Below, piece by piece: positions 18,386 through 46,838 of a stretch of 64,000 nt of DNA. Within the stretch, counting starts at the first letter, position 1; each line of letters begins with the position of its first letter. Made by a program: the position numbers and the translations under genes. The stretch is from Candidatus Hodarchaeota archaeon. GTDB taxonomy: Archaea > Asgardarchaeota > Lokiarchaeia > Sigyniarchaeales > SOKP01. Under the pieces are notes generated by a model. That model saw only the letters and a program-made list of their open reading frames with translations, had not been told where the DNA came from and made no database searches. The stretch is taken from assembly GCA_048887225.1 (NCBI GenBank), contig JBHLJY010000013.1:1-64000 (forward strand), in the 5' to 3' direction.

Positions 18386-19525
18386 TTATTCTGTATCGGC
18401 ACCAACAATAATTTCAGTAAATATATTAGCAATTTCAACGAATATTGGAATTTCAACACGGCATAAATTTCCCAATATCCATTTATTTACGTCTTTCAAT
18501 AAAAATCTTATTTGTGAATGAATTTTCTTATTAATTTCTGAATTAATTACTCTCGATAACCATAAACCCCCGCCTAGCCTATACGCGATAATTTTAATAA
18601 GAGGTTCAAAAAGTGGTTCTAAGACTTGTTTCATCATCCATGATTTAGGAATTACGCTCATATTTTGATTGTCAAAAGATGGATCTCTTAATATAGGATT
18701 AGTTTCATCAACAGACAATCGAGGCATGAAACTTAATATTAAAATTAAAGCAAAAATAGCGGATATTCCGTTAATTGTATAAGAACCTCCAATTTTTTCA
18801 AGATTATCCCGACTAACTGCTACATTTGATAAAAACATGCAAATAAAAATGTTTCTATCAAATGCTTCTGAGACATAAGCATATCCTAACTCTTCATCAA
18901 TTATTAAATACTTTTCTTCTAAAATTTTCAAAATTTTTGGAGGGAATGTGTAAAAAGTATAAACTTTTCTTTCACTTTTTAATCTATCTTTTTCAATAAA
19001 CAGTTCTTTTGATATCAAACCAAATAAATTTACTAATGCTTCTAATTGTTTTTGTACATAATGATGTGGTTTATTTGGATCACCAAACATGGCATAAAAT
19101 TGATGGTCCACGATATGAAAGTCGTTCCTTTTAGTGAAGGCCTCAACCATCCTGTCAATAATAGGGCCTTGTGTACCGAGAGCAATGGCTTTTGCTTTAG
19201 ATGTGACGAATCCATTTAATAATTCGTTTATAATAAAGTCTTGTTCATGAGTCCTTGATTTCAAGATTTTTTGAAAAGCGTCAGCAAAATCTTTTGTGTT
19301 AGGGAAAAATGCATTTCCTATTTTATCGTCTATAGTTTTGAGGAATATATCTCCATTGTTTTTAGGAAAGTGGGTTCTTATATTGTTTAATCTTTGTAAT
19401 AGAGCATCTCTCGCACCAGGAATATTTTCAACATCTCGCTTTTTAAGCTCTTCAATAGATTTTTCAACACCCTTAATGAAATCTTGCTGCAATTTTTTCC
19501 ATGTAGGATCTTGGAGTTCAGTCAT
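18386..19525 (-). CDS. Hypothetical protein
   Basis: 379-aa ORF in the operon-like cluster; no motif recognised. Confidence 0.75.
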   Translation of the reverse strand: MTELQDPTWKKLQQDFIKGVEKSIEELKKRDVENIPGARDALLQRLNNIRTHFPKNNGDIFLKTIDDKIGNAFFPNTKDFADAFQKILKSRTHEQDFIINELLNGFVTSKAKAIALGTQGPIIDRMVEAFTKRNDFHIVDHQFYAMFGDPNKPHHYVQKQLEALVNLFGLISKELFIEKDRLKSERKVYTFYTFPPKILKILEEKYLIIDEELGYAYVSEAFDRNIFICMFLSNVAVSRDNLEKIGGSYTINGISAIFALILILSFMPRLSVDETNPILRDPSFDNQNMSVIPKSWMMKQVLEPLFEPLIKIIAYRLGGGLWLSRVINSEINKKIHSQIRFLLKDVNKWILGNLCRVEIPIFVEIANIFTEIIVGADTE

Positions 19526-32656: not shown

Positions 32657-33150
32657 AAAATTGCTAATAAGATTTTTTTTTTAACTTCTATCCTTTAATT
32701 TCTTTTATAATAAATTAAAGTTTCAATTTTTTGTATCTTATATTTGTTTTTAGGATTTTATTTTCTAAATTACAGCCCAGTCTTTTTTTTTATTTAAATA
32801 TAACTAGCTTAATTATATAAACGATGTGATAAAAATGGAAAAAAAAGACAAAATTGGATGCAGTTTAGACTACAAAGCTGATCCTACTGGAATCTTTGTT
32901 AATCCATAAATCCAAACTTATCTTATAGGACTTATAAAAAATAACCTTTTTATTATTCTATAAGAATTTATAAAACTCCAGATTTCTTCGATTTTTCGAA
33001 GATTTTATGGATTTTTATGAAATATCAAGCAACCATAAAAATCATAGATCTTAATGAAATTAATATTATTTTTTAAGACATAATATTTTAATCAAAAAGT
33101 GAATACAACTATTTATAATTAATAGTATTTTATTAAAGATTTTGAAGTAT

Positions 33151-34652
33151 ATGAGTATAGAAAAAATAGCTGAAAATGTTTATGAAATAAATCCAACGGT
33201 ATTAATGGTTCATTTAAAAGGTAAGATCGAAAAATTTCAAATGAGAGTGCCTGTTCACATTTACGCAAGTGAATATCTTTTGAATCAAATAAAGCAAGAT
33301 AGGACTATAGACCAAATAAGTAATGTTGCGTGTTTACCAGGAATACGGAAACATGCTATTGCTCTCGCTGATGCGCATCAAGGTTATGGATTTTGCATTG
33401 GAGGAGTTGCTGGGACTGATGCCTCAGATGGTATGATATCGCCAGGAGGCGTTGGATACATAAAAGTATAGGCTTTTATGCCAAAAACGACATAAACTGC
33501 GGTTGCAGACTTCTCCGTACGAGCTTATTTGAAAAAGATATTAAACCTGTTTTACCCAATTTATTAAATTCGATATTTAAAAATATTCCTTCAGGTTTAG
33601 GATCAAAAGGCAAATTAAATTTAAGATATTCAGATTTAGATAAAGTTTTAAACAATGGATTAAATTGGACCTTGGATAAGGGATATGCAATCGATGAAGA
33701 CCTTAAACATTGCGAAGAAAATGGATTTTTGACGGATGCGGACGCTAATTTAGTATCACAAAAAGCAAAGCAACGGGCAATTAAACAGCTTGGTTCTTTA
33801 GGGAGTGGAAACCATTTTATTGAAATACAAAGAGTTAATGAGATTTATAATGAAAAAATAGCAAAGAAACTTGGAATTAATAACAAAAACCAGATAACTG
33901 TTATGATTCACACCGGTAGTAGAGCCTTAGGTCACCAAGTTTGTACTGATTCTTTAAGAAATATTGAAAGAGCAATGAAAAATTATAAAATCAGAGTTCC
34001 TGACAGAGAGCTTGCATGCGTCCCTTCTAATACTCCTGAAGCAAAAAATTATTTGAGTCAAATGGCATGTGCTGCGAATTTTGGATTTTGTAATCGACAA
34101 TTGATAACACATTGGCTACGAGAATCGTTTCAAGATATATTTAGAAAAGACCACAACTCTTTGGATCTGAATTTAATTTATGGTGTTTGCCATAATATCT
34201 TAAAAATAGAAGAACACGAAGTTGATGGTGTAAAAATGACGCTGAATGTCCATCGCAAAGGGGCAACTAGGGCTTTCCCTGCAGGGCATCCAGATGTACC
34301 TCAAGATTATAAGGATATAGGGCAACCAGCATTAATACCTGGTACTATGGGATCGGCTTCATATTTATGCGTCGGTAAACCAAGAGCAATGGAGCTCTCT
34401 TTTGGTTCTACAGCTCATGGTTCAGGTAGGATGATGTCCCGTTCAAAAGCTAAGAGAAAATATTGGGGTAAACAAATAAAAGAAGATTTGAGTAAAAAGG
34501 GAATTTTAGTGAAAGCAGCTTCAATCCAAGTAATTGCAGAAGAGGCTCCAGGTGCTTATAAAAATATAGATCAAGTTGTTAATGTAAGTCATGATCTTGG
34601 AATAGTAGAAAAAATTGTCAGGTTAGTACCAATTGGAGTTGTAAAAGGATAA
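33151..34652 (+). CDS. rtcB: RNA-splicing ligase RtcB; two exons (33151-33457, 33487-34652), ~490 aa after removal of a 29-nt BHB intron
   Basis: Exon 1 encodes [13 protein letters not shown]...ISPGGVG. Exon 2 is stop-free from DINCGCRL through [44 protein letters not shown] and EEAPGAYK. The alternative start is TTG at 33142. Confidence 0.92.
33458..33486 (+). other. Putative 29-nt BHB-type mRNA intron in rtcB
   Basis: Central helix TTGG (33452-55) / CCAA (33481-84); 3-nt bulges ATA (33456-58) and AAA (33485-87); intron stem CATAAAAG (33459-66) / CTTTTATG (33473-80); outer pairs CG/CG. Canonical cuts give GGA T|AC GAC = G-Y-D in frame. Confidence 0.85.
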
Positions 34653-34657
34653 TACAA

Positions 34658-35089
34658 TCATATATCAAAAACTATGTTTATTATAACATTATCTTCGCTC
34701 TCATCAATATTAATAAATGAATACGTAATCGCCTTTACTTCTGTTCCAATATCATGCTTTTTTTTATTGAATTTTTCTCCTTTCATAGTTACTTTTAATT
34801 TATAGTGCTTGTTGATTCTTTCAATATATTCTACATTAATATCATTAAATATTAATCCTTCTACATCAAAAAAATAAAGATATTCAGAAAGAAAATCGAA
34901 TAAAAGAGCCTCTTTATCCTCAGCTTTAATTTTAAAACTTTTTTCTATTTTTGGTGAGATTTTCTCTAAATTTGGAGTAATTATTGCCATTAGACTAAGA
35001 GCACATTGAGAAAAAGCTTCTTCTAGGGTTCTACCCCAGCTTTGGCTTTGAATATCCGCAGTATGATTTATATATCTAAAACCTTTCAA
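34658..35089 (-). CDS. Archease (RtcB activator)
   Basis: HTAD, G.TLEEAF, LLFDFLSE, GTEVKAITY and C-terminal FDI; convergent with rtcB, 5 nt apart. Confidence 0.93.
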   Translation of the reverse strand: MKGFRYINHTADIQSQSWGRTLEEAFSQCALSLMAIITPNLEKISPKIEKSFKIKAEDKEALLFDFLSEYLYFFDVEGLIFNDINVEYIERINKHYKLKVTMKGEKFNKKKHDIGTEVKAITYSFINIDESEDNVIINIVFDI

Positions 35090-44356: not shown

Positions 44357-45373
44357 GTGTCTGTCGACAGAAAAAAACTAAATGCCTTACTTAAATGGTA
44401 TAGGCAAGAAGTTGGAAAAGATTTGATAGGTGCACTAATCGTTAATAGAGAAGGATTAGTAATAGATGCAATAGCAGGATCCTCAGAAGAGAAATCAATC
44501 GACGAAGAGATTTTAGGGGGCGTTAGTTCATTAGTTGAACCTGTGCTTAATAGAATCACGCAAGAATTTTCTTCTGGGTCTTTTGGAACTGGAACTTTTG
44601 ATACCGAAGAATATAGACTTATTTTTTGTGAAGCTGGACCGGAAGCTATCTTTGTTACCGTATTAGATGCTGTTGCAATGGTTGATCCTGTATTTCCATA
44701 TGCTTATTTAGCTGCTGAGAAGATAGCACGAGTTTTTGATGGACGGAGTGTAAGTCCAGTAATTCCTAAAATTATCGTAGACGAAGCTGCTCGCGATATT
44801 GAGCGCAAAATAGACAAAATGCAACAAATTAAAATTCAGTCAAGCGAATATGCCTACAAATTAATCTTAGGTGGTGATGGAGCCGTTGGTAAGACTAGCA
44901 TGGTTCATCGTTTTGTTGAGGACAGATTTGAAACTGACTATAAAGGAACTATTGGAACGTCTATCATGAAAAAAGAGTGTGAATTTGAAGGTCTGAAATC
45001 TAAAGTTAGATTCGTTATCTGGGATTTAGCAGGACAGTCGCAATTCAAACGTGTAAGGTATTCTTACGTTGCTAATGCTGAAGCAGGAATTTTAGTTTTT
45101 GATGTGACAAGACGGGATAGTTTTGAGAATATTAAACTTTGGTATGATGAATCGATAGAAATATCGAAAGATATTGTGCTAATATTAGTTGGAAATAAAA
45201 TTGATTTAGAGGATTCGAGAATTGTTTCCACAGCTGAAGGAGAAGAATTAGCAAAAAAATTGGGTTTGGGATATATAGAGACTTCAGCTAAGACTGGCGA
45301 AAATATAGAAGACGCTTTTAGAATGTTAGCATTACAAATTGTAAAAAAATTTGTTGTAGCAAAGGAAGTATAA
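44357..45373 (+). CDS. Roadblock/LC7 domain fused to a Rab-like small GTPase
   Basis: N-terminal GALIVNREGLVI roadblock fold; G1 GDGAVGKT, G2 TIG, G3 WDLAGQ, G4 GNKID, G5 ETSAK; no C-terminal prenylation Cys. Confidence 0.9.
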   Translation: MSVDRKKLNALLKWYRQEVGKDLIGALIVNREGLVIDAIAGSSEEKSIDEEILGGVSSLVEPVLNRITQEFSSGSFGTGTFDTEEYRLIFCEAGPEAIFVTVLDAVAMVDPVFPYAYLAAEKIARVFDGRSVSPVIPKIIVDEAARDIERKIDKMQQIKIQSSEYAYKLILGGDGAVGKTSMVHRFVEDRFETDYKGTIGTSIMKKECEFEGLKSKVRFVIWDLAGQSQFKRVRYSYVANAEAGILVFDVTRRDSFENIKLWYDESIEISKDIVLILVGNKIDLEDSRIVSTAEGEELAKKLGLGYIETSAKTGENIEDAFRMLALQIVKKFVVAKEV

Positions 45374-45471
45374 AGCCTCTGGGGGGATTTGAACCCCCGA
45401 CCTACAGATATATCTGTGATTTTTTGCGATTCACTTACGAATCTGTTGCTATACCGCTAAGCCACAGAGGC
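45374..45471 (-). tRNA. tRNA-Thr(CGT) with a 26-nt intron at canonical position 37/38 (45435-45410)
   Basis: Acceptor GCCTCTG/CAGAGGC; anticodon arm ACAGA-TT-CGT-A[intron]A-TCTGT; T arm GGGGG-TTCAAAT-CCCCC. Confidence 0.88.
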
Positions 45472-45524
45472 TTACTTTTCAAGTTATTAAAGATTAATGT
45501 TAAAAAAATTTTAAATCTTGTCCA

Positions 45525-46562: not shown

Positions 46563-46666
46563 ATTTACTTAAGTTTATTCTAAAGTATTTAAGATTTCTG
46601 ATTACAGATTTAACTAAATAAAATATAAATATTATTGTGGATTACTAATAATACCATTTTTTTTAT

Positions 46667-46740
46667 GGGCTATTGGCGCAGGCAGGTAGCGCAGCAGGCT
46701 TTTAACCTGACGGTCAGGGGTTCAATTCCCCTATAGCCCG
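46667..46740 (+). tRNA. tRNA-Lys(TTT), intronless
   Basis: Acceptor GGGCTAT/ATAGCCC, D stem GCGC/GCGC, anticodon loop CT-TTT-AA, T arm AGGGG-TTCAATT-CCCCT. Confidence 0.93.
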
Positions 46741-46838
46741 TCTGAATTCGTTAAATTTTTTTAACTCGATCTCTTTAGAATAAAATTTAACTTTCCCATA
46801 ATTTATTTATTTACATTATAACTCTTTAAATTATTAGT

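Follow-up and report, generated by a model that had tools for sequence, protein, structure and literature searches.

A putative tRNA-type intron in the gene for the tRNA-splicing ligase RtcB of Loki-type Asgard archaea

The stretch of DNA analysed here (64,000 nt; hereafter 'the window') belongs to a 3.27-Mb, 98% complete genome assembly of the Promethearchaeota (Loki-type Asgard archaea). It harbors rtcB—the gene of the ligase that completes tRNA splicing—in two pieces separated by 29 nt, with an archease gene convergent to it, 5 nt past the rtcB stop codon. The features of the locus are:

32709..33510, plus strand: segment of different ancestry, covering the upstream spacer, all of exon 1, the intron and some 24 nt at the start of exon 2 (BLAST and alignments; discordant exon 1 and exon 2 trees)
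33151..33457, plus strand: rtcB exon 1, from the ATG up to base 1 of the Tyr codon in GGVGY (translation; Pfam RtcB profile positions 1-47)
33450..33489, plus strand: whole bulge-helix-bulge (BHB) motif (fold; pair counts; frozen exon bases)
33458..33486, plus strand: putative BHB intron of 29 nt, containing the in-frame stop codon TAG (33469-33471) (fold; register test; same insert in relatives; covariation)
33487..34652, plus strand: rtcB exon 2, from the AC of the Tyr codon through DINC to the stop (translation; Pfam RtcB positions 48-426, E = 1e-144)
34658..35089, minus strand: archease, the RtcB activator (Pfam Archease, E = 2e-41)

Positions 33151-33459 translate into M...ISPGGVGY (103 residues), which is followed by IKV and then by the TAG. 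Frame +2 takes over from 33489 with DINCGCRLL... and stays open for 387 residues, up to the stop codon at 34650-34652. The site of interruption thus lies between GGVGY and DINC and, given that Pfam coverage ends at profile position 47 and resumes at 48, the break is exact: nothing is lost but continuity. In agreement with an earlier note on this DNA, made from the letters alone, excising 33458-33486 yields GGA TAC GAC ATA AAC TGC and a product of 103 + 387 = 490 aa, with contiguous Pfam coverage over positions 1-426. The predicted spliced junction joins GGCGTTGGAT to ACGACATAAAC, and the peptide predicted to span it is GGVGYDINCGCR. The unspliced message would yield a 106-aa N-terminal stub, counted from the ATG at 33151. 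As had also been claimed, this stub lacks the catalytic residues: Asp95 and Cys98 of DINC, plus every later metal-binding or guanylyl-His residue, are encoded 3' of the break.

Inspecting the fold around the break revealed the BHB geometry proposed before, namely an outer helix (C33450-G33489 and G33451-C33488), a 4-bp central helix of UUGG (33452-55) with CCAA (33481-84), two 3-nt bulges (AUA, 33456-58, and AAA, 33485-87) and an intron stem of eight Watson-Crick pairs, to which one U-G pair can be added, with four nt in its loop. Minimum-energy folding of 33440-33500 (-15.8 kcal/mol; z = -2.8), with an energy that one in 200 shuffles matches, recovers the stem, the central helix and the bulge on the 5' side; the outer pairs do not form in it, as a CGCC/GGCG hairpin competes with them. 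Helices flank the motif on both sides, and the outer one—2 bp in the window and reduced to a single G-C pair in three of the 14 variants described below—puts it at the weak end of the strict hBHBh' form. Because of an AC/AC repeat, three of the eight registers tested restore the reading frame; the 4-bp central helix forms solely in the register that follows the BHB cut rule. The tRNA-Trp gene of this genome, which served as a control for that rule, carries a 29-nt intron at 37/38 in the same arrangement. The rtcB intron sequence occurs in a single copy genome-wide, even with up to 3 mismatches allowed, and on this count we rejected the idea that it is a repeated element.

The genome encodes what processing of such an intron would take. 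It contains two EndA (tRNA endonuclease) paralogues, located at G000 C1:186.6 kb and C3:61 kb. One has the Aeropyrum pernix alpha subunit as its closest counterpart and retains the catalytic Tyr/His/Lys residues, while the other bears a Ser in place of the catalytic His, as expected of a structural beta subunit. Asgard EndA has been assigned to the (alpha-beta)2 type with a broad-specificity loop (PMC5829648). Synteny of rtcB and archease is kept in contigs L078, L046 and L063-L065. The 32 tRNA genes detected by ARAGORN in the whole genome include 15 interrupted ones, with introns that mostly measure 13-48 nt; as 32 is all that the program detects, more interrupted tRNA genes were probably missed. 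Within the window lie a tRNA-Thr(CGU) gene with a 26-nt intron (45373-45472, minus strand) and an intron-free tRNA-Lys(UUU) gene (46666-46742, plus strand).

With respect to ligases, three family searches of the 98% complete genome returned no recognised 3'-5' RNA ligase other than RtcB. A Pab1020/Rnl3-type enzyme was considered as an alternative and not found, the sole hint being a 586-aa ORF that matches PF09414 below threshold. The genome also encodes two 2H-phosphoesterases; we know of no 3'-5' splicing ligation by that family. Nor does the whole 3.27-Mb assembly hold a second rtcB: the Pfam RtcB profile matches just the two pieces.

The insert recurs in relatives. A search of 60 related genomes returned the same 29-nt insert in two more, and within the class as a whole the intron is present in five of 161 genomes, all from one family and spread over three of 30 genera. 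It is common to G002, G021, G131, G154 and a number of metagenome contigs. The protein database holds ~18 clusters of ~106-aa RtcB fragments ending in GGVGY plus three residues, derived from sources that include LCGC14 marine-sediment data and 'Promethearchaeota' MAGs. The best full-length match in the same database (95% identity) comes from a genomic allele without the intron and does not represent a spliced cDNA. Pattern scans across genome and metagenome collections yielded 14 distinct Asgard variants of the intron; matches to the pattern in the bacterial contigs L036, L038, L039, L041, L043 and L051 were dismissed as chance. As the data are entirely metagenome-assembled, one may ask whether the 29 nt arose through an assembly or sequencing error. 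However, the insert is found in independent JGI, ENA, NCBI and Logan assemblies, including the LCGC14 data from 2015, and its variants differ in sequence yet keep their pairing, which leaves an artefact with a negligible probability.

In the alignment of the 14 variants, 97% of pair cells are standard, versus 30-46% when partners are slid against each other. The intron stem is paired in 99% of cells, and six of its nine pairs have changed on both sides, with compensatory replacements such as A-U to G-C, U-A to A-U and C-G to U-A. The relatives thereby supplied the same-site inserts with covarying BHB pairs that the earlier note had suggested looking for. For the central helix, 96% of cells are paired, with a mismatch in two variants (L044 and L045). 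The covariation score amounts to 0.212, compared with 0.03-0.10 for slid partners. None of 500 shuffles attained the observed pairing or covariation values, a statistic that overstates significance because the variants are related. We consider the covariation strong, albeit not formally independent, evidence for the predicted structure.

Constraint extends into the flanking exons. All 14 intron-bearing alleles share the exon part of the motif, GTTGGATAC, without a single change. Of 30 intron-free relatives, which display 17 synonymous versions at these positions, three have the same bases. Synonymous positions in the codons for Val-Gly-Tyr are thereby fixed in every intron-bearing allele. The intron itself diverges by just 7-17% in most allele pairs, as opposed to saturated synonymous divergence (dS) in exon 2, where dN/dS among intron-bearing alleles is 0.05-0.11.

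These values bear on whether the insert simply disables the gene, making rtcB a decaying pseudogene in these lineages. An in-frame stop combined with a frameshift would be the expected signature, and other truncated RtcB entries in the database (L046, L063 and L064), which we had considered as introns elsewhere in the gene, turned out to be plain single-base frameshifts, probably sequencing errors. Yet the interrupted gene is the sole rtcB of a genome that has introns in 15 of its 32 detected tRNA genes, purifying selection persists past the break in alleles with saturated synonymous sites, and the same 29 nt reappear in many assemblies with compensatory changes. No further lesions were found in the interrupted gene, and relatives display a conserved BHB structure in place of the random decay that had been named as counting against the intron. 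We therefore regard a dead gene as highly improbable. More generally, the conservation, the frozen exon sites and the selection on the gene speak against a pseudogene, an artefact and a split protein alike.

Unrelated inserts occupy the same codon elsewhere. In a Micrarchaeota rtcB (L040:3999-4062, minus strand; also L054), a 29-nt insert without relation to the Asgard one interrupts the same Tyr codon, with its junction 2 nt further 3' and a GGUU/GACU central helix between 3-nt bulges. In L065, from another archaeon, an equally unrelated in-frame insert of 21 nt containing a TAA sits in this codon. For both, the unique junction that restores the frame is the only register to provide a 4-bp central helix, with 3-nt bulges and an inner helix of 3-5 bp. 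Inteins are also found nearby: L065:1444-3346 and L047:1502-1556 encode an rtcB intein between DIN and C, at a point 9 nt 3' of where the intron sits, so that the L065 gene bears both the 21-nt BHB insert and an intein; the pattern match in L047 reflected this intein-bearing allele and was discarded. Selfish insertions thus cluster at this active-site motif. A further relative, G038, has its rtcB (C209:4484-5596) in one 459-aa frame covering Pfam positions 1-303 and 373-426, which suggests a divergent or deleted internal segment.

The above observations also speak to ribosomal recoding, whereby the message would remain unspliced and ribosomes would bypass the 29 nt as they do in phage T4 gene 60. 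The layout, with a stable hairpin and a stop codon soon after the putative take-off point, resembles that of a bypass element. However, matched take-off and landing codons are absent—the repeat consists of the dinucleotide AC only—and the part that is conserved is the BHB geometry, comprising the 3-nt bulges, the 4-bp helix and the frozen exon bases. Since, in addition, two unrelated inserts differing in sequence and length follow the same cut rule, and the genome encodes the cognate endonuclease, we deem bypassing very improbable.

The history of the intron differs from that of the gene's 3' part. The JGI metagenome contig L078 shares the window's synteny and is intron-free, with precisely the 29 nt absent. 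Its identity to the window is ~94-95% in the upstream gene and again from 33511 on, and drops to ~75% in exon 1. The spacer upstream of rtcB measures 494 nt in the window (32657-33150, very AT-rich) versus 97 nt in L078. It contains no ORF of more than 43 aa and no Rfam match at threshold; a homing endonuclease inside or beside the intron was ruled out on these grounds, the 29 nt being too short for a gene and the spacer being without such an ORF. Compared with the genus relative G006, L078 is 84.8% identical in exon 1 and 84.3% in exon 2, while the corresponding values for the window are 77.7% and 83.6%. The nearest sequences to exon 1 of the window are all intron-bearing.

Trees built from the same 27 rows for either exon, with the motif columns removed, gave discordant results. 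Exon 1 allows a single clade of intron-bearing alleles (AU test, p = 0.24). Exon 2 rejects one (log-likelihood difference 202; AU p = 1e-46). A protein tree of exon 2 likewise disperses these alleles over part of one sub-clade in the family and rejects a single clade. That the intron is linked to exon 1 and unlinked from exon 2 points to recombination: together with the mosaic relation to L078, the discordant trees suggest that the intron moves, or is erased, when recombination exchanges the 5' exon along with it. The exchanged segment takes in exon 1 as well as the upstream spacer, with its boundary ~24 nt beyond the intron's 3' end. In principle, L078 might be an assembly chimera; the discordance between the exon trees holds irrespective of it. 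The direction of the exchange—gain in the window's lineage versus loss in that of L078—is inferred from modest identity differences, namely the 77.7% versus 83.6% to G006.

We scanned the genome for further split genes, requiring a BHB together with an ORF fusion (4 of 4 central pairs, at least 4 inner and at least 2 outer pairs, and at least 70 codons per side). Under these strict settings rtcB was the sole convincing match, a false negative with regard to other split genes: a relaxed scan and direct inspection uncovered introns in genes for an aldolase and for ribosomal protein uL11. The only uL11 gene (G000 contig C4, ~65433-65700, minus strand; locus L076) contains two BHB-shaped inserts of 36 and 28 nt; excised by the same cut rule, they leave ...ALVTGGSASGGPPIGPAVGPTGINIK... 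and a restored, conserved GG..GPPIGPA.GP motif. A DeoC/LsrF-type aldolase gene (G000 C1:321212-321243, plus strand; locus L071) carries a 32-nt BHB-shaped insert before GRNIFQ, with a 9-bp stem and a GCGU/GCGC central helix, and its Pfam match stops at the junction. On the strength of these cases, rtcB is one of several interrupted protein genes in this genome. Two other relaxed matches, one pairing an FrhB-like with a pyridine-nucleotide oxidoreductase gene and one pairing ferredoxin (Fer4) with CCG (cysteine-rich, HdrB-type) domains, represent adjacent genes or fusions with no demonstrated intron and were set aside, as was one more, uninformative match (L072). The relaxed scan also marked a weak site in the window, 19379-19407 (plus strand; 28 nt, 6-bp stem, 41 + 64 open codons), likely due to chance.

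Taken together, we assign a probability of roughly 0.87 to the reading that the 29 nt are a BHB intron of the rtcB mRNA, cut by EndA and joined by RtcB, and that this intron is a tolerated, selfish-like passenger. Under this model, the exon 1 bases GUUGGAUAC and the intron would fold into the BHB after transcription, and the two-subunit EndA would cut after base 2 of each 3-nt bulge, past U33457 and past A33486. RtcB, aided by the neighbouring archease, would then join the 2',3'-cyclic-phosphate and 5'-OH ends, a ligation that would restore GGVGY-DINC and the 490-aa enzyme. The analysis directly shows the anatomy of the locus, its conservation and covariation, the selection acting on rtcB, the presence of the enzymes and the mosaic ancestry; from these we infer that the message is cleaved and ligated, with RtcB as the ligase. 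Any new RtcB would have to come from messages mended by enzyme that the cell received at division, while homologous recombination, carrying exon 1 along, would spread the intron among Loki-type archaea or remove it.

The earlier note had further proposed a self-referential loop that couples ligase supply to splicing activity. One half of this proposal stands as a probable consequence: with rtcB in a single copy and no further 3'-5' RNA ligase recognised in the genome, existing RtcB is most likely needed to make new RtcB. The other half, a dedicated feedback or feed-forward device, finds no support. If the intron were maintained as an adaptive circuit that ties RtcB output to EndA and RtcB activity—a feedback or bistable switch tuning splicing capacity—one could point to the dependence itself, which is real if splicing occurs, to the purifying selection on the intron sequence, and to three unrelated inserts having settled in the same codon in different lineages. 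But the need to remain spliceable explains the selection, and the intron is rare, restricted to five of 161 genomes and three of 30 genera. It is missing from a contig that is ~95% identical, its presence or absence within a genus argues against an essential circuit, and it has recombined together with exon 1. Moreover, unrelated genes of this genome carry similar introns, so that rtcB is not singled out here. An adaptive circuit accordingly strikes us as quite unlikely, and an element that is tolerated and spreads laterally accounts better for these features.

Among known systems, the closest is the intron of cbf5 pre-mRNA in Desulfurococcales and Sulfolobales (Watanabe 2002; Yoshinari 2006; Yokobori 2009, PMC2738675). 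There, too, a short intron that encodes no protein interrupts an archaeal coding sequence at a BHB-like junction, is cut by a two-subunit (alpha-beta)2 EndA before the exons are ligated—steps that are predicted for rtcB—and is patchily distributed, relatives having gained or lost it. The differences lie in the host gene, which here is the ligase itself and hence entails self-dependence; in the lineage (Crenarchaeota versus Asgard); in the motif, described as relaxed for cbf5 and near the strict form in rtcB; and in the linkage of the intron to its upstream exon, for which we met no report concerning cbf5. Splicing of cbf5 has been shown experimentally, whereas the rtcB intron is known from sequence alone. 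A second mRNA substrate, HVO_1309 of Haloferax volcanii (PMC10485636), is cut by EndA and appears spliced in RNA-seq, likewise outside the Crenarchaeota, but differs in gene, lineage, EndA type (a homodimer) and the lack of self-reference.

The introns of archaeal pre-tRNAs (Marck and Grosjean 2003), those of the heavily interrupted Asgard tRNA genes (bioRxiv 10.64898/2026.10.13.758758) among them, share motif, cut positions, enzymes and size range with the rtcB intron. The exon half of the rtcB motif is protein-coding and is therefore constrained by codons, as opposed to tRNA structure. RtcB inteins between DIN and C (e.g. in Pyrococcus, L047 and L065) are likewise selfish, target the same active-site motif and are removed post-transcription; they leave at the protein level and bring their own homing endonuclease, whereas the 29-nt intron encodes nothing. 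The parallel to eukaryotic XBP1, drawn in the earlier note, is a loose one. XBP1/HAC1 messages also contain a short frame-shifting intron that is spliced without the spliceosome, and in animals an RtcB orthologue joins the exons. The nuclease differs, however, with stress-activated IRE1 cutting at twin stem-loops there and the tRNA endonuclease predicted to cut at a BHB here. Likewise, XBP1/HAC1 splicing is regulated and both mRNA forms encode protein; for rtcB we saw no sign of regulated cleavage, and the unspliced form specifies the 106-aa stub.

A BHB intron in rtcB is not reported in the literature open to search, consistent with what had been noted before; the EndA-spliced coding sequences described there are cbf5 and HVO_1309. 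A review from 2023 deemed it likely that further EndA-spliced coding sequences would be found (PMC10485636).

A far-reaching reading would be that EndA and RtcB constitute a general, protein-only mRNA splicing system of Loki-type Asgard archaea, serving many coding genes including uL11 and the system's own ligase, rendered autocatalytic by the rtcB intron, with mini-introns spreading from species to species, through recombination, as exon-linked cassettes. We hold this to be unlikely and offer it as speculation. If true, a fall of RtcB below a threshold would lead to an irreversible or bistable state, and an intron economy would exist in the closest prokaryotic relatives of eukaryotes.

What makes the present finding of interest is the gene that hosts the intron, the lineage it occurs in and the signature of recombination. 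Enzyme-spliced introns in archaeal coding genes amount in print to essentially two cases, cbf5 and HVO_1309, and a conserved example in the ligase gene would show that some archaea routinely express genes with the help of the tRNA-splicing machinery. The 40-nt motif provides a compact natural substrate for studying the specificity of Asgard EndA, and the linkage to exon 1 a concrete handle on how mini-introns devoid of an endonuclease move. The message of the very enzyme that finishes splicing would itself need splicing and, with other split genes in the same Asgard genome, this setting bears on the intron tolerance of the archaeal ancestors of eukaryotes.
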